The notes beneath the pieces were generated by a model. The model saw nothing but the letters and a program-made list of their open reading frames with translations, was not told where the DNA came from and ran no database searches. A DNA stretch of 64,000 nucleotides, from contig NZ_OY780933.1 in the NCBI RefSeq assembly GCF_963676065.1, positions 2,332,122 through 2,396,121 of the forward strand, read 5' to 3'. This DNA is from Maridesulfovibrio sp. Its GTDB lineage: Bacteria > Desulfobacterota > Desulfovibrionia > Desulfovibrionales > Desulfovibrionaceae. This document shows, piece by piece, positions 1,510-45,202 of the stretch; the stretch's first letter is position 1, and each line of letters opens with the position of its first letter. The position numbers and the translations under genes were made by a program.

Positions 1510-1633
1510 ATATTTTTACAGTTTAACCAACATTCAACATGTTGAAATAAGGGCTGTTTTTAATTGAAGGGTCCTTACTGCCTTGATATTCTGTTGTTCT
1601 CACGCACCAGGAATAAAAAGGAGAAGGACTCGG

Positions 1634-2782
1634 ATGCAACGTATCTCTACCAACCACGTCCTGCAAGCCTCTGAACAACAAATTCCAAGTCGAATTGACT
1701 CTTTTTTTCAGCATTTCGGGATTGGAACCCTTGCCCATAGCTGCGGAATCACGAAAACAAAGGGAGTATCCCAAACCATTCTGTTTTCCTGCATTTTTTC
1801 TTTTCCGTTTTTCAGCCTCAATCTTTACCGATGCTTTGCAACCCAGCAGAACAAGGATTTTGCTAAAGACGCAGCCTACGATTTCTTCCGTTCAAGCCGT
1901 TTCAGTTGGCGGCGTTTCTTGCTCCGTCTGGCAGCCAAAGTCTGCGCTGTATTTCAAGAACTGACCTCGGACGACCTAGAATTGGTGTTTATGATCGATG
2001 ACTCCATCGTGCATCGTCCCCGTGCAAAAAAAATCGAGTTGCTGGCCTGTGTTTTTGATTACTCGGAAAGCAAATTTCTTAAATGTTTCCGGTTGTTGAG
2101 CTTATGTTGGTCTGACGGCAACAGCCTTGCTCCCCTAGATTTTGTCCTGTTGTCTTCTCACAATGAGAAGAAGCGAATTCTAGGTGTCACCAAGCAGGTT
2201 GATAGCCGAACCTGCGGAGCCAAGCGTTGCCAAGAAGCTATACGCAAATCCACAACTTTAATCGGCCCTATGCTGCGTCGAGCTTTATTTGCCGGAATTC
2301 GGGCCAAATATTTGCTCATGGACCGTTGGTTCGACATGCCTTCAATCATCGCTGATACAAGCGAATTTTTGCCTGTTATCTGCATGGTTAAACGCACCTC
2401 CAAAATACTTTACAGGTTTGGAGAGGAACGTTTGACCGTTGATGGAATCTTCCGCACAATCAAACAGCATCTGGATTTGGAAAAAGGCTGTCAGGCCAGA
2501 TATTTCGATGCGCTTATCGCGCACACCACCATTGTTATGATGCGGTATCTCTTCCTCGCTTTGGAACAAAGGCGAAATGACGATCCACGCATTCCCGGTC
2601 TGCTTTTACACACCTGCTGCGAAGAAATGCGCGACTTGGATTACTTGGAGTCCCTTCAACTAATCCTGATTTTAGCTTCGGTAAATTTACTGAAAAACAA
2701 GCCTGTTGCAGAGAAGTTGAGCCAAGTTATGATGGCTGAAATCCTCAAGCAAGAATTTTATATTTACGGCTTAAACAGGTAG
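1634..2782 (+). CDS. IS4-family DDE transposase (likely internally deleted or degenerate)
   Basis: ATG at 1634 follows an AGGAG RBS; the ORF track starts at TTG 1583. Motifs MIDDSIVHRPRAKKIELL, LLMDRWF, and the C-terminal LDLEKGCQARYFDALIAHTTIVMMRYLF are typical of IS4-like transposases. Confidence 0.7.
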   Translation: MQRISTNHVLQASEQQIPSRIDSFFQHFGIGTLAHSCGITKTKGVSQTILFSCIFSFPFFSLNLYRCFATQQNKDFAKDAAYDFFRSSRFSWRRFLLRLAAKVCAVFQELTSDDLELVFMIDDSIVHRPRAKKIELLACVFDYSESKFLKCFRLLSLCWSDGNSLAPLDFVLLSSHNEKKRILGVTKQVDSRTCGAKRCQEAIRKSTTLIGPMLRRALFAGIRAKYLLMDRWFDMPSIIADTSEFLPVICMVKRTSKILYRFGEERLTVDGIFRTIKQHLDLEKGCQARYFDALIAHTTIVMMRYLFLALEQRRNDDPRIPGLLLHTCCEEMRDLDYLESLQLILILASVNLLKNKPVAEKLSQVMMAEILKQEFYIYGLNR

Positions 2783-5498: not shown

Positions 5499-6110
5499 GT
5501 GAGCCTTGTGAGAATATTGTGTTTTGTGCTGTTAATGTTGCTTGCAGCGTGTGCCTCCCATCCGCTTGATATGTCGGATGATGAATGGGGTGCGCTCACT
5601 CTGCAACAAAAGCTTGAAGCACGTGAAAAGCAGGCTGAACTTGATTTAAAGGCCAGAGAACTGGCTGTAGAGCAGGAAAAACGAAGAAATGAGGAACGAA
5701 GAATTGCCAGAGTCAAAGAGCGTGAAGCAGATATTGCCAATGGTCTGATCGTTGAGTTCTATCCTGCTAAGGCTGCCTGTATTGGCGGCGATAAGTGCCG
5801 TCCTAGGGATGTCAATGAAATCATAATCCCTTTGCATGGGTTGTGTGCCATAGACGTTGTCCATATTTATGCCGATGACCGTGTGGGAAATCGGCATGAT
5901 GGGGTGCTTGAAGTTATGGCTGACCATTACCGTTTGGAGCGTGTCGACATCTCCAAGCGTAGCAAATGGTATCAGGTCTTTGCCGGGCGCAGGGCCCGTA
6001 ATGTGGTTTTGAAGACGGTAACTGATGATGAAGTGCAGGTTTACTGGGTCAAGGTGTTTGGTTCGCGGATTGATTCGGGCCAGATTGAATACCGGGTTAT
6101 TGAAAGGTAG
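5499..6110 (+). CDS. Lipoprotein with a charged coiled-coil segment and a C-terminal beta-rich domain; unknown function
   Basis: GTG at 5499 lies 6 nt after GGAGG. Lipobox LLAAC. E/R/K-rich stretch. 45 nt downstream of the previous gene. Confidence 0.6.
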   Translation: MSLVRILCFVLLMLLAACASHPLDMSDDEWGALTLQQKLEAREKQAELDLKARELAVEQEKRRNEERRIARVKEREADIANGLIVEFYPAKAACIGGDKCRPRDVNEIIIPLHGLCAIDVVHIYADDRVGNRHDGVLEVMADHYRLERVDISKRSKWYQVFAGRRARNVVLKTVTDDEVQVYWVKVFGSRIDSGQIEYRVIER

Positions 6111-6125
6111 AGATAGGTCGTTTTA

Positions 6126-7937
6126 ATGCTGAGTTATTTTTATATCCTTCACCGCCATCTCAAAAACATAACTCCGGTGGTTGTGGGTGTTTATACTTTT
6201 ATCCTTTTTCTGGGAGCGTTTTTCACTTTTCCTTTTTCTACTTCGCCATCAGATCTCATGGGGGTCTTTTTTTTAGGGGGGGGCGGAGCTTTAATCTTGG
6301 AAACATTGTCTTTGTTGGGCCTGATCCCTGCTTACGGCTGTGCCCCGTTTAGCGAGGGACTTATAAAGTTCGGGCTGGGGGCATTTTTTGTATGGGTTGC
6401 CTTTGATATGAGTCTTGCCGGTCAGGGAACCGCTACCATTGCTGTTATCTTTTATGTATTGACTGCTGGATTCTACGCACTCACTTTCCGTAAGCACAAA
6501 TGGTATAGTGTTGTTGCAACCGGTCCGCTCGGTTCATTTGATACTTTCATGGAAAAAATGGAATCTTCCGGGGCAGAACAATTCAAATATCTCGATAATA
6601 CGAAAGAAGGCCGCCACTATACTCTCAATAAATTTTTGGTAAATTTTAATGCTATTGAAACAGATCGCTGTACTTATACTGTGAGCAATCTGATGCCGCA
6701 GAATCTGAAATGTTTGAAAAAAATATTCGGGGAGATGGAGGGTATCACATCAATATGGGAGGGCCTTGATTTTCATAGCAACTGTCGTGTTACTAACGGC
6801 AATATCCAGCGCATATTTGATGATTCAACAGAACTTGACGAAGCTTATATCTATGGCAACGGGTTATTTCTTTCTTTACGTTCGAAAAATATTCTTTCCG
6901 GGATTCATGGTTCCCTTGAAAGGGAAGTTGGGCCGGGAAGGGGGCAGCTTCACCGGATTACCGTCAGTTTTGAACCCTATCCCCAAAAGAATGATTTTTT
7001 CCTGAACCTCAATACCCATAATCCCCAGGAGCTAGTGAAACTGCGAATAGTTAATCCTGCTGATGGTGATGAGAAAATTCAATGTCCTGAATTACTGGGG
7101 GAAAATATATCCTTTTCCGTTGTCCATGAAGGCCCGCTTGATACTTTTGGAAGTCGGTTGATTTTTAAGAAACATGGCGAAGATGGACGGGAGTATTTCC
7201 TGATCTCATACTCTTATCTTGAAGGAATTATTATCAAACCGATAAGCGGAGCCGAAGCAGCAAGTCTTCCAACTGTTTCGGTGGAAAAATACCTTGATTA
7301 CTGGAGCTGCTTTACTGCTTTGGATGCCGCTTCGAATGTTGAAGAAGAGGAGATTTTTGATCCCAATATTTTTATGGCACCGCGAGGAAACTTTATTCTT
7401 TTGGGCTATGATGAAAGTATTGATGAGCACCGTCATGCTGGAATTTTCCCGTCAGAAGGAAAAACCATTACCGAAGCTTTGAGGATAACAAAAAAATCTG
7501 ATCCAGATAATTTAGTTTATCAAGTGTATGATGAAAATGGGGACTGTCTTTTTGCTACGAACCAGAAAGCTCCTGTGAAGAGAGAGCATTTTGTGGCAAA
7601 GATGATGCGCTATAGTGGGCCCTTTTGGCATGAGTTTTTTGATGACGGCTATTGGAAGCTGCTTGTTGGAAGCTATACGTTGGCCTGGGTGGCATTAATT
7701 CCTTTGTTTGTCCCTTTTATGCAGGAGAACGGCCTGATCTTTCTGGCCTATGGTTTAATCCCTATAGCACTGGCCGGTATCCACCTGAGACTTTGGGGTG
7801 ATCTTTCACTCTATGCCACAAGCAGAGGTGGAAAGCTTAGCTGCGTTCTAGTGGGCATTTTTGGAACAATTGCCTTTACGTGTCTCTTGGCAATTTTGGT
7901 TGCTTTTCGGGTTAAATTACTCTGGTGTTTGGGCTAG
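6126..7937 (+). CDS. Polytopic membrane protein (N- and C-terminal TM bundles, about 380-aa central soluble domain); unknown function
   Basis: 603-aa ORF 15 nt after the lipoprotein gene. Hydrophobic helices at both ends. No motif I recognise. Confidence 0.6.
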   Translation: MLSYFYILHRHLKNITPVVVGVYTFILFLGAFFTFPFSTSPSDLMGVFFLGGGGALILETLSLLGLIPAYGCAPFSEGLIKFGLGAFFVWVAFDMSLAGQGTATIAVIFYVLTAGFYALTFRKHKWYSVVATGPLGSFDTFMEKMESSGAEQFKYLDNTKEGRHYTLNKFLVNFNAIETDRCTYTVSNLMPQNLKCLKKIFGEMEGITSIWEGLDFHSNCRVTNGNIQRIFDDSTELDEAYIYGNGLFLSLRSKNILSGIHGSLEREVGPGRGQLHRITVSFEPYPQKNDFFLNLNTHNPQELVKLRIVNPADGDEKIQCPELLGENISFSVVHEGPLDTFGSRLIFKKHGEDGREYFLISYSYLEGIIIKPISGAEAASLPTVSVEKYLDYWSCFTALDAASNVEEEEIFDPNIFMAPRGNFILLGYDESIDEHRHAGIFPSEGKTITEALRITKKSDPDNLVYQVYDENGDCLFATNQKAPVKREHFVAKMMRYSGPFWHEFFDDGYWKLLVGSYTLAWVALIPLFVPFMQENGLIFLAYGLIPIALAGIHLRLWGDLSLYATSRGGKLSCVLVGIFGTIAFTCLLAILVAFRVKLLWCLG

Positions 7938-8491
7938 CAGTACTTTTTATAATTAAGAATTTTTGACGCTAAACGATCAGCCAACATTTTGTTGGAATCT
8001 TTCAATTGTTCATGGATCAATTTTGCTTCTTCACGGTATTTGGCGCATTTTTCCTTTGTCCAGTAGGATGGCGGCGGCTGAAGATTTACAACCCGGTCTG
8101 CAAGTTTGACCAGTTGTGCTTCATGGGGGAGTTTCTTCAAGCGTTCGAGGCTGTCGGACATTTGGGCTTTCTTGTCAGGGAGGGATTTGTCTTTGGTTAA
8201 TCCTGTTACCCCATCTGCAACCCCCTTTCCGAACAGCTCTTCTAATTTTTCATAGGTTGTCTCTGTATCTTCAATGGTGTCGTGAAGCAAAGCGCAACAG
8301 ACCGCCAGATCGCAATCCATGTCTGACGGGCTGACAGCCAATGCAGACATTACTTCCATGGCAACAGCACCGACATGCAAGATGTATGGTTTTTCTGTTC
8401 CGGGTACACATTGCCCAAGGTGCTTTTGCGCTGCAAAGTTCCAAGCTTTCATATATGTGTCTTGCGAGATGAAATTCAAATTGTTCTCCAT
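7934..8491 (-). CDS. HD-domain (p)ppGpp hydrolase-like protein (small alarmone hydrolase type)
   Basis: AAQKHLGQ, LLHDTIEDT and KLADRVVNL are typical of the RelA/SpoT hydrolase domain. 185 aa, single domain. Confidence 0.75.
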   Translation of the reverse strand: MENNLNFISQDTYMKAWNFAAQKHLGQCVPGTEKPYILHVGAVAMEVMSALAVSPSDMDCDLAVCCALLHDTIEDTETTYEKLEELFGKGVADGVTGLTKDKSLPDKKAQMSDSLERLKKLPHEAQLVKLADRVVNLQPPPSYWTKEKCAKYREEAKLIHEQLKDSNKMLADRLASKILNYKKYC

Positions 8492-8764: not shown

Positions 8765-9427
8765 TTAAATTTCCTTTAAAAAATATTCACCAGTCCACTT
8801 ATAGCCTTCTTCCATAAAGTCTTTAAAATGTTTTGGGTCAGTGATATTATTTTCAATAAGCCACCTGACAAAGCGACCTTTAATGTGCTTTCCCTGGTGA
8901 CCTGCCGGCATCTTCTTACCTGCTTTTTTTAGAACAAATTCAACCTCAATTCCATGATCATATTTTACAGCTTTCTTGTGTGCTTGCGGTAATAAATCAA
9001 TAACAAATTTGTTTTTCAATTGCTCTGAATTGGAATTCACCCATAACTTGGCAGCTTTTAATTTATCAATTTTTAAACGATAATTAGGAATCAAATCAGA
9101 CGGGCTTACAAGGCCAAATAGACCTGAAACAATTAACACTTTTTTATCGAAGTCAGATTTATTTTTCAAAGTTTGATAATCAATTGCGTCATAAACTACG
9201 CCTGTATACCGTTCAATAGCAGGCATTGTTTTTGAAATTAAGACTTCCTTATTTACAGTAATAGCTTTCTCGAGAGCCGTTTTCTTAAGTCCATATAGCT
9301 TTATGGGATCAGCTTCTTTAATCGCTTCAATTAAGTCGGCAGCAATACCTGATACAGACTTTAGAGGTTTATTGTGTCCGCCGTCAGCTTTACCCTCAGA
9401 TGGTGGAATTAAGATAATAGTTTTCAT
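8765..9427 (-). CDS. yaaA: YaaA/DUF328 family protein (peroxide-stress protein family)
   Basis: PPSEGK start, ERYTGVVYDAIDY, SGLFGLVSPSDLIPNYRLKI, HIKGRFVRWLIEN. The gene is markedly AT-rich compared with its neighbours. Confidence 0.7.
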   Translation of the reverse strand: MKTIILIPPSEGKADGGHNKPLKSVSGIAADLIEAIKEADPIKLYGLKKTALEKAITVNKEVLISKTMPAIERYTGVVYDAIDYQTLKNKSDFDKKVLIVSGLFGLVSPSDLIPNYRLKIDKLKAAKLWVNSNSEQLKNKFVIDLLPQAHKKAVKYDHGIEVEFVLKKAGKKMPAGHQGKHIKGRFVRWLIENNITDPKHFKDFMEEGYKWTGEYFLKEI

Positions 9428-9743
9428 AAAAATTCTTACGAGTTTAATTCGTTAAAAACGTTGGAGTTTAGCAAGTAAAATAAACGAATCAGTTAATTGC
9501 AATTTATTTGTACAAAATAAAAGTTGGGGTCCTCTTCTATATTATGGGATGAAATAGAAAGATATTGTTTTTTGAGAAGGGCCTTAATTTACATATTCTT
9601 TTCCAGTGAAAAAAATCCTGGAAATCTCCCATTCTCCGCAAATCCCGGAAAATACCCAAAACGTGTTCTCTCATGGATAAAATTAATCTTATTATGTCAA
9701 ACCCTGGCGAGCTGTCTTTTCGCATTGCATTCAAGAGGCAGTT

Positions 9744-9767
9744 GGTTCAATTTCCCCAGCTCCACCA
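9744..9767 (+). other. Remnant resembling a tmRNA (ssrA)/tRNA 3' end (T-loop to CCA); possible att site
   Basis: GGTTCAATTTCCCCAGCTCCACCA closely resembles the E. coli ssrA 3' end GGTTCAACTCCCGCCAGCTCCACCA (from memory). No matching 5' half upstream. A terminator follows. Confidence 0.45.
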
Positions 9768-9785
9768 TATAAATTTCTCATAATT

Positions 9786-9820
9786 AAGCCTAGCTATCAA
9801 AACTGGTAGTTAGGCTTTTT
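9786..9820 (+). terminator. Rho-independent terminator
   Basis: Stem aagccta/taggctt with further inner pairing, followed by a T-run. Confidence 0.6.
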
Positions 9821-9925
9821 CGTGCTGGTTAACCTGCGGGTAAACAAGGTCAACTCGGGGCTACCTCAAGCAAAGATGTACAGGCTCGAACGGTCAAATT
9901 TCTAACTGTTGATTATTCCTAAGTC

Positions 9926-9990
9926 GTAACGAAATTTTGTTGTTAATACACTAAATTTCGTTTCTTCAACGAAATAGCGTTGTTATGTTT
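9926..9990. promoter_or_regulatory. Candidate enhancer (UAS) repeats for the sigma-54 activator
   Basis: 18-nt direct repeats aacgaaatNNNgttgtta at 9928 and 9968 (15/18 identical, 40-bp period). An inverted copy aaatttcgtt lies at 9954-9963. The repeats end about 60-120 bp upstream of the -24 element. Confidence 0.5.
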
Positions 9991-10047
9991 TAGTGTCAAA
10001 AAATAAATAGTTCATTATTTCGGTGGCTTATTTGGTTTTATCTCGTA

Positions 10048-10061
10048 GGCACAGCTCTTGC
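10048..10061 (+). promoter_or_regulatory. Sigma-54 (-24/-12) promoter
   Basis: GGCAC-agctc-TTGC has exact GG-N10-GC spacing and a near-consensus TGGCAC-N5-TTGC. It lies about 125 nt upstream of the ATG at 10185. Confidence 0.75.
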
Positions 10062-10184
10062 CTTATAGCTGAATAAAATAACTTAAGCCAAAAGCCTTTG
10101 GGGTATTTTTGAGCGACAGCAATAATCGGCTTGCGTTGGTCAAAGTGCCTACCTTAGGTGAAACAGCCATCGAGGAATGCAGAA

Positions 10185-12206
10185 ATGGGAAACGAAAAGC
10201 ATACACATGAACATGATCATAGTCACGGTCACCATCATCATAGCCACGGGCACCATCATCATAACCACAACGATTTCACTGACTACAAGAATGCAGTCAA
10301 AGAATATCGTCAGTCATTTGCCAGTAAAAAGGATGTAATGGAGCAGGCCCCTGATCCGGCTGTACGGGACATGGTTAAATATATGGATGAGCAGGGTGTA
10401 GAAAACTGTTTTGATCGTTTCGACAAGCAGAAACCGCACTGCACCTTTGGGTTGGCAGGGGTCTGTTGTAAAATATGCTCCCTTGGTCCCTGTAAGATCA
10501 CTGAACGTTCTCCCCGTGGAACATGCGGTGCTGATGCTGATCTTATTGTTGCCCGAAATCTGGTCAGGTCGGCTGCAGGTGGCGTTGCCGCACATGGAGC
10601 TCGTGCGCGGGAGATCATTCTCACTCTGAAAAAAGCAGCAGAAGGCGATGTTAATCTGCCTATTGAAGGTGTGAATAAGGTCAAAGCTGTTGCCGACATG
10701 TTCAATCTTGATGTTAAGAACAGCACTATCGAAGAGCTGGCTGGACAAATCGCAGACATTCTTTTGGAAGATTTAAGTAGAGCAGTCCCCGGAACTCATA
10801 AGACGCTTGATGCTGTAGCTACGTATGAAAGAAAATTAGTTTGGGAGAATCTGGATTTACTTCCTGTTGGTTCATACCATGAAGTTTTCGAAGCCCTGCA
10901 TCAGACCACCGTCGGCACTCAGGGAGATTGGCGTAAAGCCATGGATCAATTCATGCGCCTTGGTGTCGCATTTTCAATGAACAGCGTTGTTGGCGGTTCT
11001 ATTGCAAGCGACTGTCTTTACGGTGTGCCTCAGCGGACCACCGTCAAAGCCAATTTGGGGGCATTGAAAACAGACACAGTAAATATTGCAGTCCATGGAC
11101 ACGCCCCTCAGATGGCAATGGAAGTGATAAAAACAGCCCGCAGTGAGAAGTTCGTTGAAATGGCGAAAGAAGCGGGAGCAACTGGTATTCAGTTTTACGG
11201 TATTTGTTGTTCCGGATTGTCATCTCTGTACAGGCTTGGAGGAGTAATTCCCCTTTCCAACGCCAACGGATCTGAACTTGTTCTCGCAACAGGTGCTCTT
11301 GATCTTTGGATGGCTGATATTCAGGAAATATTTCCGGGTATTATGGATGTTGCAAACTGCTACAAGACTGTAGTCGTGACAACTAACGAGTCAAACCGTC
11401 TGCCCGGAGCAGAGCATATCGGTTATAAACGTGACCTTTCTGATCTGGACAAACTTCCAGAAATGGCAGAGCGCATTGTTACCCGCGCAATTGAAAGCTT
11501 TAAGAATCGTCGCGATGTAAAGAGACATATTCCCGAGCATGAGGTTGAGGCTGAAGTTGGATTTAACCTTGAAACACTCAAGGCCCGCTATGGTTCACTT
11601 TCAACAATAGCCTCGGCATTGATTGAAGGAAAGATCAAGGGAATCATCAACCTCGCAGGATGCACAAACACCAGAATCGTATTTGAAAAAGCGATCGTGG
11701 ATATCGTCGATATCCTGTTGAAAAACAACGTACTGGTCTTTACCAACGGATGCGCTTCCTTTCCTATGGCCAAGTTGGGATATTGTTCCAGCAAAGGGCA
11801 GGAAAAATGCGGCGACAAGCTGCTTAGATTCCTAGGTCCTAAAATGCCTCCTGTCTGGCATTTTGGTGAATGCATAGATAATGCACACTCTGTATCTGTG
11901 TTTAGAGAAATAGCAAAGTATACCGGACGTCATTTGAAAGATCTGCCTTTTGCCGAAGTGACCCCGGAATGGTCCAATGAAAAAGGTGTGGGAGCAGCTC
12001 TCGCTTATCGCATGCTCGGTTTCAATTCCTATCACTGCGTTCATGCCCCAGTTCAAGGTTCTAAAAAAGTTGAAGAATTCCTTTATAACGGCACAAAGGA
12101 ATTGCTCGGCTCGTGCATGAACGTTGATCCCGATCCTGCAAAAGTAGCCGCAATGATCCTCAGGGATTTTGACGAAGCCAGATCTAATGTGTGCTGGCGG
12201 TCATAG
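10185..12206 (+). CDS. cooS: CooS-family (Ni-CODH/prismane family) protein, deviant: poly-His N-terminus and one cluster Cys replaced by Glu
   Basis: ATG at 10185 follows a GAGGA RBS. Motifs CTFGLAGVCCKICSLGPCKI, GTCGADA, IAVHGH, GICCSG, LAGCTN, TNGCAS, HFGECIDN. DIQEIFP occurs where canonical enzymes have D-x-Q-C. Confidence 0.85.
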   Translation: MGNEKHTHEHDHSHGHHHHSHGHHHHNHNDFTDYKNAVKEYRQSFASKKDVMEQAPDPAVRDMVKYMDEQGVENCFDRFDKQKPHCTFGLAGVCCKICSLGPCKITERSPRGTCGADADLIVARNLVRSAAGGVAAHGARAREIILTLKKAAEGDVNLPIEGVNKVKAVADMFNLDVKNSTIEELAGQIADILLEDLSRAVPGTHKTLDAVATYERKLVWENLDLLPVGSYHEVFEALHQTTVGTQGDWRKAMDQFMRLGVAFSMNSVVGGSIASDCLYGVPQRTTVKANLGALKTDTVNIAVHGHAPQMAMEVIKTARSEKFVEMAKEAGATGIQFYGICCSGLSSLYRLGGVIPLSNANGSELVLATGALDLWMADIQEIFPGIMDVANCYKTVVVTTNESNRLPGAEHIGYKRDLSDLDKLPEMAERIVTRAIESFKNRRDVKRHIPEHEVEAEVGFNLETLKARYGSLSTIASALIEGKIKGIINLAGCTNTRIVFEKAIVDIVDILLKNNVLVFTNGCASFPMAKLGYCSSKGQEKCGDKLLRFLGPKMPPVWHFGECIDNAHSVSVFREIAKYTGRHLKDLPFAEVTPEWSNEKGVGAALAYRMLGFNSYHCVHAPVQGSKKVEEFLYNGTKELLGSCMNVDPDPAKVAAMILRDFDEARSNVCWRS

Positions 12207-12349
12207 TCCAATTAGCAATAACGTTTGTTTGTAGCCTCGATGGCTTACGCAGCCGGCTCCGGTCTTTCCGACCACATCACCGGGGTCGGCTGTGCAACCA
12301 TCCGGTTTGCTATCAAGACTAATTCGTAATGATGTCCTTGGGGTAATAG

Positions 12350-13111
12350 ATGCATTTCAGATCAACTTCGGTACAGTTCAGATTATCCAGACCATGCCGC
12401 GAAGAATTTTCAAAAGAATTATATCGTCCGGGAGTTGTTTCTCTGACGCGTATAATCTGGGGCTCTCTTGGTGGTGGGCTACTGCTGTGGTTCATCGCTA
12501 TTCTTTCCGGAAAAACAGGAATCAATGTCCTTTATCCTCCTCTTGCAGCAACATGTTTCATAAACACTACCTGTGTCTTTTTGCGTGTTGCACGTCCAAA
12601 GTCAGTAATAGTCGGACATACGGTAGCTTCAATCTGCGGATTGGCTGGAGTCTGGATAGGAAATTATATCGCCCCGGGGCCCGAATTCATAATCCCTGTG
12701 AAGCTTGGACTTTCCGTCATGCTCGCGGCTGTCTTCATGCAGATATTTGATGCCGACCACCCACCTGCAGCCGCCACTGCAGCCATACCGGCGATACTCC
12801 CACTCCCCATGCCTTGGTACTTGCTCCCACTGCACATGGCATGGGGTGCCACAATAACCGTTATCTTTGCGTTTATCTGGAATAGAATCTGGTTTGAATT
12901 TCCTGTCCGGGATAGTGATAACTGCGTCAAAAACGCAGGGCTATACATGGAAAAGGTTCAAATTGCGGGCTTAGCAATATGTATAGTCAGTTGTATGATT
13001 ATGTGCTTTCAATCCATATCCCCTACAATCAGAATGTCCGGTCTCTGGGGTATGGCTGTAGGGAATATAATTCTCGGGACACATCATTTTTATAATATTA
13101 CCTCAAGTTAA
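12350..13111 (+). CDS. HPP-family integral membrane protein
   Basis: Signature FDADHPPAAATAAIP plus PKSVIVGHTVASICGL. Multiple TM helices. Confidence 0.75.
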   Translation: MHFRSTSVQFRLSRPCREEFSKELYRPGVVSLTRIIWGSLGGGLLLWFIAILSGKTGINVLYPPLAATCFINTTCVFLRVARPKSVIVGHTVASICGLAGVWIGNYIAPGPEFIIPVKLGLSVMLAAVFMQIFDADHPPAAATAAIPAILPLPMPWYLLPLHMAWGATITVIFAFIWNRIWFEFPVRDSDNCVKNAGLYMEKVQIAGLAICIVSCMIMCFQSISPTIRMSGLWGMAVGNIILGTHHFYNITSS

Positions 13112-13232
13112 TTAAAAGGAGGGATTGTCATTAGAAATTAATAAAGGCAGGACATGGATTAGCGGATGTTTATAATCTGAGATATACCTACCAACCTCAA
13201 AAAAATATCTCCATGTCCTGTCTCATAAGACT

Positions 13233-14900
13233 ATGTTACTGCCATTTCTATTGTCAGTCGGAATAATTATGTTTAGAACTTCAGGCATGGCTGACGAAAA
13301 AACTTTTCACTTCAGAAATGAGAAAATTCAATCTCTTTTGCTGGAGATGGGGCAACAAAGGTCTACCGGATCTCTTTTCACTCTTATAGTAAATGGGCTG
13401 GCCCAATTCCCGAATATTTCCCTCGCTCGAATATGGCTAATCAAAAATGGCGATATCTGTCCCTCATGCCCTTTACAAGATGAGTGTCTGAATCAAAAAG
13501 AATGTCTGCACTTGGTTGCCAGCGCCGGACAGTCCGTTTTTGATTCTGCTGTAGATTGGGCACGTATAGACGGTGATCATCGACGTTTTCCTTTGGGAGC
13601 CAGAAAGGTAGGGCATATCGCTGCTACAGGAACTCCCGTCATAGTGAAATCAATATCCAAAGACTCCAAGTGGATACTCCATCAAGATTGGGCAAAGCGG
13701 GAAGGAATAAATGGATTTGCCGGTCAACCGATGGTTTACCATGGTGCAACTATGGGGGTTCTGGCTGTTTTTACCAAGAGTGAAATAGCCCAACCCGCTC
13801 TTGAGATACTGAATATTATCTCAAACCATGCTGCTGCTGCACTTGTTAACGCACGGGCTTTTGAGAAAATAGAAGAACTGAGACGACGTCTTGAGTCCGA
13901 AAACAGCTATTTGCGTGAAGAGTTGATGAGTTCAACCTCTTTCGGCGGATTCATTGGTCAAAGTGCTCCACTACAAAGAATTATCCAGCAGATAGACCTT
14001 GTAGCGTCCACAGACGCAAGCGTATTGATACTGGGCGAATCTGGAACAGGAAAAGAACTGGTCGCCCGAGAACTTCACCAGCGAAGCGCACGCCGAAGCA
14101 GTCCCATGATCAAGGTGAATTGTGCTTCCATTCCCAAAGATTTATTTTCGAGTGAATTTTTCGGCCATGTTAAAGGTGCATTCTCCGGTGCTGTCGCTAA
14201 CAGGGTTGGTAAGTTCGGTGCCGCGCACAAGGGGACTCTGTTTCTTGATGAAATAGGGGAAATCCCCCTTGAGCAGCAGGCTCATCTACTTAGGATTTTG
14301 CAGGAAGGAGAGTACGAACGTGTCGGAGAGGAAAAGACTCGTAAGGTTGATGTAAGAATTATTGCCGCAACCAACAAGGATCTTAAAACCGAGATTGAAA
14401 ACGGTAGATTCAGGGAAGATCTCTATTTTCGGCTTAATGTCTTTCCTATTGATGTCCCGCCGCTACGAGAGCGAAAGGAAGATATCGTGCTCTTGGCAAA
14501 TCATTTCTTAAAGCAATTTCTTTTAGAAATTAAACGGCCTGTATTTCAATTTACAGATGCGCAGCTACAAAAGCTGGAACAGTATTCATGGCCCGGTAAT
14601 GTTAGAGAGCTTCAAAATATAGTTGAACGTTTTGCTATCACCTCCAGCTCTGATCCAAGAAATCTAGATTTTTTTAACAGTCTGAAGTCAGAGCTGCCGT
14701 CCGTAGAACAATTCCAAACCAGCGATTCCAGTGAACAGATATTAACTGAGCATGAACTGGAGCAGATACAGAAAAAAAACATAGAAAGAGCCCTTAAATT
14801 GTGCCGGGGTAAGATTTATGGAACTGATGGCGCCGCGAAATTGTTGGGTTTAAAGCCCACAACTCTTGCCAGTCGTATAAAGAAGATGGATATTAGTTAG
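13233..14900 (+). CDS. Sigma-54-dependent transcriptional activator (GAF + AAA+ + Fis-type HTH; NorR-like architecture)
   Basis: GESGTGKE Walker A, GAFSGA (GAFTGA variant), ELQN, C-terminal AAKLLGLKPTTLASRIKK. The N-terminal GAF-like region carries a Cys-rich insert. The start is uncertain (alternative ATGs at 13269 and 13287). Confidence 0.85.
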   Translation: MLLPFLLSVGIIMFRTSGMADEKTFHFRNEKIQSLLLEMGQQRSTGSLFTLIVNGLAQFPNISLARIWLIKNGDICPSCPLQDECLNQKECLHLVASAGQSVFDSAVDWARIDGDHRRFPLGARKVGHIAATGTPVIVKSISKDSKWILHQDWAKREGINGFAGQPMVYHGATMGVLAVFTKSEIAQPALEILNIISNHAAAALVNARAFEKIEELRRRLESENSYLREELMSSTSFGGFIGQSAPLQRIIQQIDLVASTDASVLILGESGTGKELVARELHQRSARRSSPMIKVNCASIPKDLFSSEFFGHVKGAFSGAVANRVGKFGAAHKGTLFLDEIGEIPLEQQAHLLRILQEGEYERVGEEKTRKVDVRIIAATNKDLKTEIENGRFREDLYFRLNVFPIDVPPLRERKEDIVLLANHFLKQFLLEIKRPVFQFTDAQLQKLEQYSWPGNVRELQNIVERFAITSSSDPRNLDFFNSLKSELPSVEQFQTSDSSEQILTEHELEQIQKKNIERALKLCRGKIYGTDGAAKLLGLKPTTLASRIKKMDIS

Positions 14901-15107
14901 GTTCTAAAATATGGAGAACCGCTCACAGCCGCAAATTCCAAAAAATTACGCAATGTGTTCCCAATAGTTAAAATTAATCCAATTCTTTCAAATGTTGGAG
15001 CACTAGGGTCGTGCATGGTATAGCAAGAGGCTGTGGGGCCAGAAGTGTGCACCATCTGTTGGATCATAGGATGCATTTTTGAAGTTTTCGGTGTTATTGG
15101 GAAACGG

Positions 15108-16121
15108 TTAAGCTACGTCCTTACTTTGATTCTTCGCCATAATATTTAACGCAATCCTTAATTGTTTCGCAGTTTCAAGATCGTTGCGTGCATTAGCTGC
15201 CTCCAGTCCCAATCGTGCCTTCTCCTCGAAATTAATACGCGTCTGGTCGGTCTCCATGCTCATGGATTGTCCTGTTGTTGCGGATATCTTGAGCGTCATG
15301 GACATTAGCGGAAAACTTTCATCCAATGACATCCGTCCGCCTCGAACTTCTCCATTCATCCAATCTAGCAGCTCCTTTCGGGTCGCATCAGAGAAATTAA
15401 TGGTGGAGGACTCATCAGCCTTGTCGGGGGTTGATTCATTTGTTGCTGTAGAATTCTTTGGTATGGCAGTTTCTTCCACCTGAGTCGCTTTAACATCTGC
15501 CGAATTTTCGGGCTGTCCCTGCAAGTTCGTCTGGTCGGCCTGAGATGATAATGTGGATGATGCACCCACAGTCATTATGAACGCATCATTATTATTTTGC
15601 CCAAAGAGTTGCTCCCCGAACTGGGCAACCGCAGCATAAGGGTTCTTCTTGTATTGCTTAGCAAATTCCGTGTGGGTATGTCCTGCCTCAACCATGCTGG
15701 ACATAGCGCTAACCCTTTTGAAATCATTTTCAAGATCAGCGTTGTCTGCAAAGAGTTGTTCTATTTGTTCGGCTTGGGGATGGTTACCTGAAACCCGCAC
15801 ATGCCCCTCTTCATCGGACGTTAACTGTACCTCCGGGGGAGTGTTTATGCCGTTTTCAAGAAACATGGCCGTAATATCACTGTTCAGGTTCTGCCGTTTC
15901 TGTTGCAGTCCGGTTTCAATATCATCCAGAGAAACGCTTTTCCCGGGAGTGTAGGCAACGCCCATATCGGCAAAGAAGCCTGATATTAGTTTGCCAGTCT
16001 TTGATATGCTGACTTTATCCTGATTGGCAGCTGGTTGCGTCTGTTGTCTGGTGGTATATGACTTTTGTGAGTCGTAGCTGACCTGCTGCAACTGTGTGTT
16101 GGCTCTCAATGAATTGATCAT
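15108..16121 (-). CDS. Hypothetical Q/S/T-rich protein, no signal peptide
   Basis: 337-aa ORF with a GGAGGA RBS. No motif I recognise. Confidence 0.5.
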   Translation of the reverse strand: MINSLRANTQLQQVSYDSQKSYTTRQQTQPAANQDKVSISKTGKLISGFFADMGVAYTPGKSVSLDDIETGLQQKRQNLNSDITAMFLENGINTPPEVQLTSDEEGHVRVSGNHPQAEQIEQLFADNADLENDFKRVSAMSSMVEAGHTHTEFAKQYKKNPYAAVAQFGEQLFGQNNNDAFIMTVGASSTLSSQADQTNLQGQPENSADVKATQVEETAIPKNSTATNESTPDKADESSTINFSDATRKELLDWMNGEVRGGRMSLDESFPLMSMTLKISATTGQSMSMETDQTRINFEEKARLGLEAANARNDLETAKQLRIALNIMAKNQSKDVA

Positions 16122-16349: not shown

Positions 16350-16559
16350 TTAAGCGCCTTCAGCTAGGGTTGAACCCGGGCCGGCCAGTGGCCGGAAGGA
16401 TTTTTTAGTAGCCCCGCAATGCGGACACTTCCAATCGTCAGGAATATCGGCGAAAGCTGTTCCGGGAGCGGTTCCGGTTTTAGGCTCTCCTTTATCGGGG
16501 TCGTAAATGTAACCGCAGTTGCTTACTTGGCATTGGTACATATCTTTGGGTGCAGCCAT
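16350..16559 (-). CDS. Rubredoxin (C-x4-C ... C-x2-C variant)
   Basis: [14 protein letters not shown] and [16 protein letters not shown] at 16559 follows an AGGAGG RBS; the ORF track starts at 16574. Confidence 0.85.
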
Positions 16560-17020
16560 AATGTCCTCCTGCAATGATAGGGTGTTAGAAGTGTTAGTTA
16601 GCTAGTTGATGCTTTCAGAGTAGCATAAAATTAAACAAGTTGGGTATGTTTTTTAATTGATTAGTGTTTGAAGTATGGGCGCTGTCTGACTGCCATCAAT
16701 TTCCGTGTACGGAACCTTTTGGGCATGATAACCGAGAATACGTCCTGAGGATCTGGGTATGTCTATATGTATGGTCCTTTTTTATCGATTTTATAATTAA
16801 AAATAAAAAAGCTTTACTTCTTGCTGAGAATGGTTGATTACTTACCAACTCAGCGTGACTGGACGCACGATTACTTCTTAGCCCCACTTGGGTAACATAC
16901 GTTCCACGTAAGCTTTAGATTTACTCTCCCCGTACCAGAGCCTTCCAAATATTACCCGGTAAATCCGGGCTCGACCGTTGTCACGTTTCGTCGTATTTCT
17001 TACTTTTTTCCAAGGCTTTT

Positions 17021-43719: not shown

Positions 43720-45202
43720 AATTCTTATTATTGATGATGATGTGCAGGTTTGCGAAACTATTGAAAGTCTTGTCGCCCGAACCGGACATAACTCGGTCAG
43801 TTCGTACAACCTCACCGATGGTCTGGCTAAAGTAAAAAAAGATGATTTCGATCTGGTCTTCCTTGATATTTCGCTCCCGGACGGCAACGGGCTTGATTAT
43901 CTGCAGCAGGTTAAGGATTCAGCAGGTAATCCTGAAATTATTATCCTGACGGGTAAAGGTGATGCTGACGGAGCTGAGCTGGCCATTCAGGGCGGGGCAT
44001 GGGATTTTCTGGTAAAGCCGTCTTCTGTGAAGCAGATAACTCTTTCCATGAGCCGTGCCCTTGAGTTTCACAAAGAAAGGCAGAATAAGGCGCAGTGCGT
44101 GGCCCTTAATCTCGACAATATTGTTGGTAAAAGTGCCGAGATCAAAAGTTGTTATGATCTAGTGGCCCATGCCTCCGGCTCTGATGCCAACGTGCTGCTG
44201 AACGGAGAGACCGGAACCGGTAAAGAACTTTTTGCCCAGACTATTCACGAAAATTCAAAACGTTCAGTTAAAAATTTTGTAGTCGTCGACTGTGCGTCGT
44301 TGACCGAAACCCTTGTGGAATCGACGCTTTTCGGGCACAAGCGCGGTTCTTTTACCGGTGCTCAGGCTGATCGCAAGGGGCTGATACCTTTGGCGGATAA
44401 AGGAACCCTGTTTCTTGATGAGGTAGGGGAGATGCCGCTCGCAGTGCAGAAATCTTTTCTGCGCGTTTTACAGGAGCGTACTTATCGTCCCGTGGGAGAG
44501 AACCGGGAATTTAAATCTGATTTCCGCTTAATTGCCGCTACAAACCGGGATCTTGAGGCCATGGTCAGCCGCGGAGATTTCAGGCAGGATCTGTTATACC
44601 GCATCCAGACTATTCATATTCACCTGCCTCCCTTGCGGGACAGGGAAGGGGATATCCGCGAACTCACTTCCTATCACCTTGCGCGTCTCAGCGCTCAATA
44701 CGGGGTGCCGCCCAAGGTTGCGAATTCCGATTTTTATGAAGTGCTGGAGAATTATGATTGGCCGGGAAATGTCCGTCAACTGTTCAATATCGTTGAGCAG
44801 GCCTTTGTAGCTGCGGGAGTGGGCAATACCATTTATGCCATGCATCTTTCCGATAATCTGCGTATTAAGATGGCAAAGTCCAACTTACAGAAAAGTGGAA
44901 GTTACAACTTAAAAAATGTTCAGACTGAGCCTCGGTTTGTTTCAAGTCCGGACTCAGAATTAGTGTCTGAAAAAAAAGACTCATCTGGATTGAATAAAAA
45001 TTCAATATTTGAGGATACGGTATCTGCTGTTCTCACTGAAGAACTGCCTCCTCTAAAAGTTTTTAAAAAGATGGCTGAGAAAAAATATTTGGAAGAGTTA
45101 CTCTTGAGGCACCAAGGAGATATTGTGTCTATCCTAAAAATTTCAGGACTTTCCCGCTCTCATTTTTATGCTCTTTTGAAGAAATATGAGATCAATGATT
45201 AG
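43712..45202 (+). CDS. NtrC-family sigma-54-dependent response regulator
   Basis: Receiver ILIIDDD...DISLPDGNG, GETGTGKE, GSFTGA, C-terminal HTH. Overlaps the kinase gene by 8 nt. Confidence 0.9.
   Translation: MGKILIIDDDVQVCETIESLVARTGHNSVSSYNLTDGLAKVKKDDFDLVFLDISLPDGNGLDYLQQVKDSAGNPEIIILTGKGDADGAELAIQGGAWDFLVKPSSVKQITLSMSRALEFHKERQNKAQCVALNLDNIVGKSAEIKSCYDLVAHASGSDANVLLNGETGTGKELFAQTIHENSKRSVKNFVVVDCASLTETLVESTLFGHKRGSFTGAQADRKGLIPLADKGTLFLDEVGEMPLAVQKSFLRVLQERTYRPVGENREFKSDFRLIAATNRDLEAMVSRGDFRQDLLYRIQTIHIHLPPLRDREGDIRELTSYHLARLSAQYGVPPKVANSDFYEVLENYDWPGNVRQLFNIVEQAFVAAGVGNTIYAMHLSDNLRIKMAKSNLQKSGSYNLKNVQTEPRFVSSPDSELVSEKKDSSGLNKNSIFEDTVSAVLTEELPPLKVFKKMAEKKYLEELLLRHQGDIVSILKISGLSRSHFYALLKKYEIND

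Follow-up and report, generated by a model that had tools for sequence, protein, structure and literature searches.

The subject of this work is a 64 kb stretch of the genome of a Maridesulfovibrio species (contig NZ_OY780933.1; the whole stretch is called the window below, and all coordinates refer to it unless a locus label such as L001 is given). Three genes on its forward strand encode a homologue of the nickel-containing carbon monoxide dehydrogenases (CODH; 10185-12206, 673 aa), an HPP-family membrane protein (12350-13111, 253 aa) and a sigma-54 enhancer-binding activator (13233-14900, 555 aa as called), and the list of open reading frames (ORFs) agrees in this with an earlier note that had described three genes on the same strand. 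Our analysis suggests that they make up an inducible cytoplasmic module acting on a small solute that is carried by the HPP protein, and not on CO. For this reading as a whole we consider the chances to be evenly balanced; the part of it that we regard as likely is that the substrate of the module is something other than CO.

The assignment of the first gene product to the CooS/prismane family, made in the earlier note by eye, was borne out by Pfam (PF03063 Prismane/CODH, E 7e-132) and by the NCBIfam model of the anaerobic CODH catalytic subunit (TIGR01702), against which the protein scores 478.0 bits. As this lies exactly at the cut-off of 478, the protein is a borderline case and a divergent CooS at the edge of the family. 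It aligns over its full length with solved CODHs, best with 6t7j and 6elq (E ~1e-113). A GAGGA Shine-Dalgarno sequence favours the start at 10185 over an alternative GTG at 10158, and the N-terminus that follows is rich in histidine (about 10185-10290, with the stretch HTHEHDHSHGHHHHSHGHHHHNHND covering residues 6-30). In the PDB alignments the ‘DIQEIFP’ of the window protein is aligned to ‘D(Y/V)QCI(M/Q)P’, hence Glu381 (codon at 11325-11327) replaces Cys333 of ChCODH-II, a ligand of the C-cluster, and this is the cluster cysteine that had been noticed as missing. The other CODH residues (H93, H261, C295, C446, C476, C526 and K563) are kept together with all B- and D-cluster cysteines, and the histidine proton wire is truncated, with Glu at position 99 and Leu at 102.

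A His-rich N-terminus combined with Asp or Glu in place of ChCODH-II Cys333 defines clade B, structural group B-1, of the CODHs (Inoue et al. 2019, PMC6344411; Bohm et al. 2026, PMC13592312). From its sequence the window CODH is a Ni-CODH of this group, already catalogued in 2019. It is 81% identical to its homologue in P. indicus and 75% identical to its relative in Desulfosporosinus sp. BG, and Supplementary Table 1 of Inoue et al. 2019 (PMC6344411) types the proteins of P. indicus (660 and 663 aa) and Desulfosporosinus sp. BG (678 aa) as ‘B, B-1, type II, H H C E C C C K, His-rich region’. With its His-rich N-terminus, E333, E99 and L102 the window protein also agrees with the logo drawn for clade B by Bohm et al. 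2026 (PMC13592312), and it is nested among proteins typed B-1. Its closest match in genome collections is a Maridesulfovibrio metagenome-assembled genome (MAG; 96% protein identity), which marks the host as one of the marine Desulfovibrionaceae, and it is 53-59% identical to the Firmicutes and other clade B enzymes of Butyrivibrio, Veillonella, Megasphaera and Campylobacter concisus, which have ABC transporter neighbours. The picture of a ‘deviant CooS’ that had escaped recognition can thus be set aside, as the protein falls among sequences already typed as clade B. Unlike most of clade B it has Glu instead of the commoner Asp at 333 and Ala instead of the expected Ser or Leu at 262, the latter throughout its subclade, and it has Arg instead of His at position 96, which is shared with part of clade B. 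The signature R96, E99, L102, A262 and E333 is found in 25/26 subclade sequences (Glu at 333 likewise in 25/26), with the rest of clade B having mostly D333 and S or L at 262. We rejected an identity with ChCODH-V or with hybrid cluster proteins (HCP). These belong to the same superfamily, have a carboxylate at the active-site cluster and include relatives that reduce hydroxylamine (NH2OH), but clade D has its substitution at another ligand (Y H E C C C C K in the table of Inoue et al., PMC6344411) and the similarity is lower, with E 5e-72 for the CODH-V structure 7b7q as compared to E 1e-113 for CODH-IV-like structures.

As elsewhere in clade B, the gene has no typical CO-metabolism partners. 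Among the annotated ORFs from about -10 kb to +15 kb of the module there is no cooC, cooF, cooA or hydrogenase gene, as the first inspection had indicated, and the 64 kb window holds no second CODH. With Cys333 replaced and no CooC, CooF, CooA, hydrogenase or acetyl-CoA synthase partner in that range, the locus differs from a canonical CO-oxidising cooS operon. One clade B enzyme has been characterised, RfCODH of Ruminococcus flavefaciens, which oxidises CO at 13 mU/mg compared with hundreds of U/mg for ChCODH-II, reduces NH2OH at 66 mU/mg, and does not turn over CO2, bicarbonate or nitrate (PMC13592312). Because of this 2026 study the view that clade B enzymes are not CO oxidisers is already the working view of the field. 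By analogy with RfCODH, with which it shares the CODH fold, the intact B- and D-cluster cysteines, the carboxylate at Cys333 and E99 together with L102, the window CODH would be a very poor CO oxidiser acting on another small molecule.

The gene neighbourhood is where the window departs from what has been published for clade B. Clade B CODHs are known to adjoin NitT/TauT ATP-binding cassette (ABC) transporters, in about 64% of members in an eLife 2026 study, and Inoue et al. 2019 (PMC6344411) reported ABC transporter neighbours in ‘all structural groups’ of the clade. We fetched 79 genome loci with clade B homologues, including 23 at 75% identity or more and 54 at 53-59% identity to the window CODH, and typed their neighbours. 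In 17/23 of the loci at 75% identity or more an HPP gene lies directly downstream of the CODH gene, and 5/23 are uninformative because of a contig end or failed ORF calling too near the CODH gene. In the 53-59% loci (Firmicutes, Campylobacter concisus and termite-gut lineages) the picture is reversed: 45/54 have an adjacent ABC component (an NMT1_2 binding protein, a BPD_transp_1 permease or an ABC_tran ATPase), with the NMT1_2 protein present in 42 of the 45, and 0/54 have HPP or the GAF activator. NitT/TauT ABC genes are found neither in the window nor in any locus of the subclade, and HPP is there instead. Since the ABC neighbourhood is typical of clade B and not defining, the membership of the window CODH stands despite the missing ABC genes.

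A neighbour-joining (NJ) tree built from clade B homologues recovered the HPP-bearing subclade as monophyletic in 100/100 bootstraps. Its hosts are Desulfovibrionaceae, Desulforhopalus, Desulfosporosinus and Pelotomaculum. Its sister group, a pair of Solidesulfovibrio type (69-70% identity), has Asp333 and no HPP. The 75-80% identity across Desulfovibrionaceae, Desulforhopalus and two Firmicutes genera points to horizontal transfer among sulfate reducers. The activator gene follows the CODH gene in Desulfovibrionaceae, precedes it in Desulfosporosinus, Pelotomaculum and Desulforhopalus, and is convergent in L014, so that the linkage of CODH, activator and HPP survives rearrangement. The three genes are thus co-conserved in relatives across three phyla, which answers the test that the earlier note had set for the trio. 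In Pseudodesulfovibrio (L001, 7001-8983 and 10522-12513; also L010 and L012) two clade B CODH paralogues (78-81% identity to the window protein) stand in tandem on either side of a DUF169 gene, and a sigma-54 promoter with enhancer sites precedes each of them. HPP and the activator follow only the second paralogue, and in the tree the window gene groups with the solo ‘a’ copy. DUF169 (PF02596) was also seen beside subclade CODH genes more widely, in six loci of three genera (L001 9128-9901; L018 5783-6565; L012, L013, L021 and L071), and it is absent from the window.

The HPP assignment, for which a profile search had been proposed as a check, is secure: the protein scores 91.5 bits against PF04982 TM_HPP in Pfam, well above the cut-off of 27.2 (E 5e-26). 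It has eight predicted helices and the motif DADHPPAAATA, with HPP at 12758-12766. D134, D136, H137, P138 and P139 are invariant in 47 homologues, and the helices have invariant His, Cys and Met residues (H90, H137, C69, C75, C211, M130 and M163). AlphaFold2 (AF2) gave a confident eight-helix model (predicted local distance difference test score, pLDDT, 92; predicted template modelling score, pTM, 0.90), and despite this we found no structural relative in the PDB (best E 0.05, template modelling score 0.19). Nitrite transport, in cyanobacterial and plastid proteins, is the only activity known to have been demonstrated for the family (Maeda 2014, as cited in PMC7438415), and in D. desulfuricans an HPP gene is part of the NO-induced HcpR1 cluster. 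The window protein resembles those nitrite transporters in its Pfam match, its D-x-D-H-P-P-A-A motif and its polytopic helical character. It differs from them by two extra C-terminal helices, which bring the total to eight, and by being encoded with a redox enzyme and not with nitrogen-assimilation genes. All placed HPP homologues at about 58% identity or more adjoin clade B CODHs. A role as a solute transporter seems to us somewhat better than an even bet.

An HPP protein in this position could also serve the metallocentre. Extending a proposal that Inoue et al. (PMC6344411) made for the ABC system, HPP would import Ni2+ or another metal, the His-rich tail would store and insert it, and the enzyme would carry out slow but genuine CO oxidation when the activator senses the right conditions. 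The His-rich N-terminus, the retention of H93, K563 and all other C-cluster ligands, and the absence of a nearby cooC, which calls for another maturation route, all fit this scenario, as does RfCODH, which contained 0.2-0.5 Ni per monomer and oxidised CO weakly after pre-incubation with CO (PMC13592312). However, the activity of RfCODH lies 10^3-10^5-fold below that of canonical enzymes and its gas channels are blocked; the binding proteins linked to clade B are too small for nickel binders and resemble anion binders; no HPP is known to move metals; and HPP proteins of this subfamily also occur with a molybdenum enzyme, for which nickel is not needed. We therefore find nickel import improbable and prefer a solute that is the substrate itself.

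The molybdenum enzyme just mentioned is the partner of a sister group of HPP proteins, 53-57% identical to the window HPP. In 6/6 protein clusters sampled from this group HPP lies beside a molybdenum bis-pyranopterin guanine dinucleotide (Mo-bisPGD) enzyme without a twin-arginine translocation (TAT) signal and an iron-sulfur (FeS) subunit. These clusters (L083 4425-9677; L085-L089, L092 and L093; HPP at about 6001-6780 in most) encode a Mo enzyme of 711-713 aa and a 185-aa FeS subunit with four clusters. The gene order is Mo enzyme, FeS subunit, HPP, with HPP first in D. africanus, and the hosts are D. africanus, a Desulfovibrionaceae MAG, Anaerolineae, a Hodarchaeales (Asgard) MAG and metagenomes. 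The best model for the Mo enzyme is PhsA (thiosulfate reductase), far below its cut-off, followed by formate dehydrogenase. In 4/6 of the clusters there is also a gene for an extracytoplasmic function (ECF) sigma factor fused to an NMT1_2 (SsuA-like) solute-binding domain (L083 4425-5843; L087 1682-3085; L088 1684-3087; L092 1709-3112); a sigma factor with its own ligand-binding domain would be an unusual one-component regulator. The best PDB match of the C-terminal domain of the fusion is 3UN6 (E 2e-23), followed by the regulatory domains of NrtC and CmpC and a taurine-binding protein. Both Inoue et al. (PMC6344411) and Bohm et al. (PMC13592312) name 3UN6, an S. aureus protein, as closest to the binding proteins linked to clade B, and directly compared, the ECF-sigma domain and a clade-B-linked binding protein are 26% identical over 290 aa (E 4e-31) and share a Cys-Cys pair.

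The order Mo enzyme, four-cluster FeS subunit and HPP mimics the alpha-beta-gamma operons of complex iron-sulfur molybdoenzymes, and HPP might accordingly be a membrane anchor or electron-transferring ‘gamma subunit’ that docks the CODH or the Mo/FeS pair and couples it to the quinone pool. No CooF-type electron carrier lies beside the CODH gene, the helices of HPP have invariant His, Cys and Met residues, and a fold with no solved relative leaves the mechanism open. Yet an ABC importer, which is unable to relay electrons, stands at this place in the majority of clade B clusters, and no haem- or quinone-binding signature was recognised in HPP. The only activity known to have been tested in the family is the transport of nitrite, and the ECF sigma factor of the sister clusters, with its fused solute-binding domain, speaks for a solute being sensed. 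The anchor role has in our estimate no better prospects than nickel import, and we favour HPP as a transporter of a solute.

By their shared parts three types of cluster can be told apart: clade B CODH with an ABC importer (3UN6-like binding protein); clade B CODH with Glu333, HPP and the four-cysteine GAF activator described below; and the Mo enzyme with FeS subunit, HPP and the ECF-sigma-3UN6-like fusion. As the three types share HPP or 3UN6-like parts, one common small solute would be the simplest explanation of these gene neighbourhoods. The boldest version of this is that HPP proteins and 3UN6-like domains mark an unrecognised metabolism of a small oxyanion, in which one solute is imported by HPP or by an ABC system, sensed by the ECF-sigma fusion or indirectly by the GAF activator, and turned over in the cytoplasm by one of two metalloenzymes that are not related to each other, a repurposed clade B CODH or the TAT-less Mo-bisPGD enzyme. 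We regard this as speculative and on balance doubtful. If it were true, the trio in the window would be a key to the substrate of clade B CODHs and would reveal a new class of Fe-S or metal GAF sensors.

For the solute, a nitrogen oxyanion or hydroxylamine is our leading but tentative candidate, with the odds somewhat against it. It is plausible in that it is compatible with everything found, and its direct support comes by analogy, from nitrite transport in the HPP family and from the weak NH2OH reductase activity of RfCODH. A sulfur oxyanion (sulfite, thiosulfate or a sulfonate) or a C1 or pseudohalide anion (bicarbonate, formate, cyanate or thiocyanate) would fit the same architecture. The subclade is hosted by sulfate reducers, PhsA and then formate dehydrogenase are the best-scoring models for the partner Mo enzyme, and the 3UN6-like domain also matches binders of SsuA/taurine type, of nitrate and of bicarbonate. 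Cyanate, moreover, is a CO2 analogue at the C-cluster of CODH. Against these candidates, RfCODH turned over neither bicarbonate nor CO2 (PMC13592312), the module has no genes of sulfur metabolism beside it in the window, and the documented HPP substrate is nitrite, with an HPP gene of a Desulfovibrio induced by NO. We judge these other anions to be rather unlikely, with the nitrogen compounds ahead of them.

The regulatory region would give the module its inducible character. The sigma-54 promoter that the earlier note had pointed out is AGGCACAGCTCTTGCC at 10047-10062, with GG at 10048-49 and GC at 10060-61. It is the sole match to GGCAC-N5-TTGC in the 64 kb window, where 0.46 would be expected by chance on both strands. 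An equivalent, near-perfect TGGCAC-N5-TTGC precedes 26/26 subclade CODH genes in 23 genomes, 65-280 nt upstream, including both tandem Pseudodesulfovibrio paralogues and the Firmicutes copies, and for this reason the promoter is far beyond chance; it is not present upstream of the sister sequences at 69-70% identity. Each upstream region contains in addition two or three copies of a 14-bp palindrome, AACGAAATTTCGTT, near -120, -98 and -79, the presumptive enhancer sites. With up to one mismatch 57 palindromes are found in 4.4 kb of upstream regions as opposed to 164 in the remaining 431 kb of locus DNA, an enrichment upstream of the 26 orthologues of 34-fold (177-fold for exact matches). In the window, site 1 (AACGAAATTTTGTT, 9928-9941) has one mismatch to AACG-N6-CGTT and lies 119 bp upstream of the promoter. 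Site 2 (CACTAAATTTCGTT, 9949-9962) is degenerate, with two mismatches, and is phased with sites 1 and 3 (21 and 19 bp); in many orthologous regions the equivalent site at -98 is a good match. Site 3 (AACGAAATAGCGTT, 9968-9981) has exact palindrome ends, is one of two exact matches in 64 kb and was also flagged by the terminator scan, as a hairpin only. The AT-rich spacer between enhancer and promoter (9982-10046) is a possible binding site for integration host factor (IHF) or bending region.

This conservation bears on whether the trio has a function at all. Loss of a catalytic ligand and a TIGR01702 score no higher than the cut-off might be signs of decay, and the eLife 2026 study raised a ‘degenerated function’ for clade B, in which case the window would hold a degenerate CODH with accidental neighbours. 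Such a relic is hard to reconcile with 75-96% protein identity over three phyla and no variation in any other cluster ligand, with promoter and phased enhancer sites kept in 26/26 upstream regions, with genes that are rearranged and yet linked, and with paralogue pairs retained in Pseudodesulfovibrio. We hold it to be extremely improbable, and take the trio to be a working module.

No intrinsic terminator separates the three genes; the two terminator-like matches are enhancer site 3 and a site within the HPP gene. The CODH-HPP intergenic region (12207-12349, 143 bp) contains a short hairpin, CCGACC...GGTCGG, with no T-run following it, and neither a promoter nor a terminator was detected in it. 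A search allowing up to two mismatches gave no second sigma-54 promoter before the HPP or the activator gene, and an Rfam scan of 9400-15200, which takes in the leader of about 110 nt and the intergenic regions, returned only a chance snoRNA match and no known RNA or riboswitch. Before the activator gene there is a sigma-70-like sequence, AGGACA-16-TATAAT (13149-13176; 10/12 matches to the consensus), which is a candidate for a constitutive promoter of this gene. We infer that CODH and HPP are read as a single sigma-54-dependent transcript and that the activator is made independently of it.

The activator itself consists of GAF, AAA+ (Walker A GESGTGKE, GAFSGA loop) and a Fis-type helix-turn-helix (HTH), in Pfam terms GAF, Sigma54_activat, AAA_lid_14 and HTH_8. 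Judged from its sequence, the GAFSGA loop is a functional variant of GAFTGA, and the true start is most likely the ATG at 13287 (M19), where the orthologues of other genera begin. A -24 GG/-12 GC promoter, an AAA+ domain with Walker A and a GAFTGA-type loop, an HTH and upstream sites are all present, as expected of a bacterial enhancer-binding protein (bEBP) and its target, and from them sigma-54 dependence is predicted. The activator had been called NorR-like, and this is apt for the GAF-AAA+-HTH architecture and not for the sensor. It scores 381 bits against the NorR model NF003451, below the cut-off of 476, and the match covers only residues 164-554; as the sensing part of the GAF domain is left out, the protein is NorR-like in domain order only, and we rejected its membership among the NorR-like NO sensors. 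The norVW or hmp detoxification targets of NorR-type regulators are not those of the window activator either, whose predicted target is the CODH-HPP pair.

In place of a NorR-type site the GAF domain has an insert between its first two strands with the motif C76-x2-C79-x5-C85-x5-C91, followed by LHLVAS (13458-13505). The C-x2-C-x5-C-x5-C motif is invariant in all orthologues of the activator. It recurs in a wider family of GAF activators (e.g. from Rhodopirellula) that are 38-63% identical in the GAF domain, where, over 25 sequences, the first cysteine is kept in at least 90% and the other three do not vary. In a confident AF2 model of the GAF domain (pLDDT 89), which shows the standard fold, the motif lies between strands 44-54 and 72-81, and a fold search returned generic GAF domains only (PtsP, fRMsr, PDE and Nlh2), none with a comparable cysteine site. 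The most economical reading of the motif is a metal or Fe-S centre that would respond to NO, oxidants or redox state. NorR (Fe, NO) and PexR (Zn/Fe, H2O2, three upstream activator sequences, UAS) are precedents for metal-GAF sensors (PMC12754779), and OrpR of Desulfovibrio vulgaris is an activator with a [4Fe-4S] sensor in a PAS domain (PMC8359166). The window activator has in common with NorR and PexR (PMC12754779) that it is a one-component GAF-AAA+-HTH protein encoded next to its target, with three upstream sites before a sigma-54 promoter, and by analogy a metal centre in its GAF domain probably keeps the AAA+ domain repressed as long as the signal is absent. It differs from them in its four-cysteine insert, which contrasts with their mononuclear His/Asp/Cys site, and in binding motif and target genes. 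With OrpR (PMC8359166) it shares that it is an enhancer-binding protein of a sulfate reducer with conserved cysteines in the N-terminal sensor domain, suggesting Fe-S sensing; OrpR, however, carries its three cysteines in a PAS domain, is active when reduced and has other targets. The search for the wider GAF family returned mostly truncated proteins, and we looked up the context of two of them. These planctomycete activators (L090 7001-7978; L091 7001-8628) adjoin an AhpD-like (CMD) gene, with both activator genes apparently split or truncated in the assemblies, and L090 also carries genes for an old yellow enzyme (OYE), AhpC-TSA and an isochorismatase. The AhpD-like neighbours, together with OYE and AhpC-TSA in L090, hint at sensing of oxidants or electrophiles.

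Put together, these elements suggest the following mechanism. The region would be a self-contained, signal-inducible operon. Its activator, probably expressed constitutively through a sigma-70-type promoter of its own, would bind the three phased 14-bp palindromes 70-120 bp upstream of the sigma-54 promoter. The four-cysteine site of its GAF domain would perceive the signal, upon which the AAA+ domain would remodel sigma-54 RNA polymerase, leading to joint transcription of CODH and HPP. The enzyme, with its cubane cysteine exchanged for Glu, its truncated proton wire (E99, L102) and a His-rich tail that may bind metal, would then work on a small molecule other than CO, and HPP, holding the place that a NitT/TauT ABC importer has beside other clade B enzymes, would carry this same small solute across the membrane. 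If the solute is a nitrite-type oxyanion, or the intermediates hydroxylamine or NO, catalysis would run in the direction of reduction and the module could be a nitrosative- or redox-stress reductase of sulfate reducers.

Several observations weigh against this proposal or parts of it. L013, which is among the 23 loci at 75% identity or more, lacks HPP although its activator is present, and the ‘a’ paralogue of Pseudodesulfovibrio stands alone, from which it follows that HPP is not obligatory for every copy of the enzyme. The hydroxylamine activity of RfCODH is low, its authors call NH2OH ‘a rather questionable substrate’, and nitrite turnover is not among the tests they report (PMC13592312). 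The HPP proteins that have been characterised are only the distant cyanobacterial and plastid ones. With HPP being also the partner of a PhsA-like Mo enzyme, nitrite fits no better than a sulfur or another oxyanion. The four cysteines may instead hold a structural zinc. Co-transcription of CODH and HPP, lastly, is argued solely from the 143-bp gap with its lack of a detectable terminator or promoter.

The enzyme class is known; the gene context is new as far as we could find. In the enrichment table of Inoue et al. 2019 (PMC6344411) COG3448, which covers HPP, has 7 occurrences at a false discovery rate (FDR) of 0.054 and COG3604 has 4 occurrences and is not significant, so the HPP association fell just under the significance threshold of these authors. 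‘HPP’ and ‘sigma-54’ are not mentioned in the text of an eLife 2026 study and the supplements consulted, in an Angewandte 2026 paper, in a marine survey or in a paper on the sigma-54 regulome of Desulfovibrio vulgaris Hildenborough (DvH). The suggestion in the earlier note that the trio had not been described as a unit agrees with our search of the literature, which found no paper describing it, and the HPP/sigma-54 version of the clade B cluster, with its operator, four-cysteine sensor and link to a Mo enzyme, appears to be undescribed. Three recent studies (one of 2019 and two of 2026) left the role and substrate of clade B CODHs as not known and had the ABC neighbour as their only handle. 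The HPP-bearing subclade adds a second membrane protein, unrelated to the importer and encoded where the importer would be, whose family is documented to transport nitrite. It further adds a regulator of its own, of the one-component kind, for which a reporter could reveal the inducing signal directly; a defined 14-bp operator; and, by way of the HPP subfamily and the 3UN6-like domain that they have in common, a tie to a molybdoenzyme system of the cytoplasm. With these handles the question of the substrate can be put to the test in sulfate reducers that grow in culture, among them Pseudodesulfovibrio indicus, Maridesulfovibrio and Desulfosporosinus, and the four-cysteine GAF domain is a candidate for a new type of sensor among sigma-54 activators.

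The surroundings of the module are unrelated to it by annotation. On the upstream side, on the opposite strand, lie genes for a homologue of YaaA (peroxide stress; 8765-9427) and an HD-domain protein (7934-8491), and on the downstream side a hypothetical protein, a rubredoxin-like ORF (16350-16574, minus strand), a DEAD-box helicase-like ORF, a methyl-accepting chemotaxis protein (MCP) and flagellar export genes. YaaA, the HD-domain protein and the rubredoxin-like ORF may be coincidental stress- or redox-related neighbours. Two ORFs beside the module have no Pfam match: one of 337 aa, rich in Gln, Ser and Thr (15108-16121, minus strand), and one of 603 aa with hydrophobic ends (6126-7937, plus strand). 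The G+C content of the module (0.42-0.48) is comparable with that of the surrounding DNA, and we rejected a compositional island on this ground; a DDE_5 transposase ORF lies about 7 kb upstream (1583-2782, plus strand). Elsewhere in the window there are further weak sigma-54-like promoter matches and a second sigma-54 activator AAA+ domain (44123-44800, plus strand; 44% identical over 226 aa). Just upstream of the module a tRNA-like 3' end (GGTTCAATTTCCCCAGCTCCACCA, 9744-9767) is followed by a hairpin with a T-run (9787-9824). ARAGORN found no tRNA or tmRNA near 9744-9767 and Rfam calls no gene there; the two elements could be what is left of an integration site, or an unannotated small RNA could end here.

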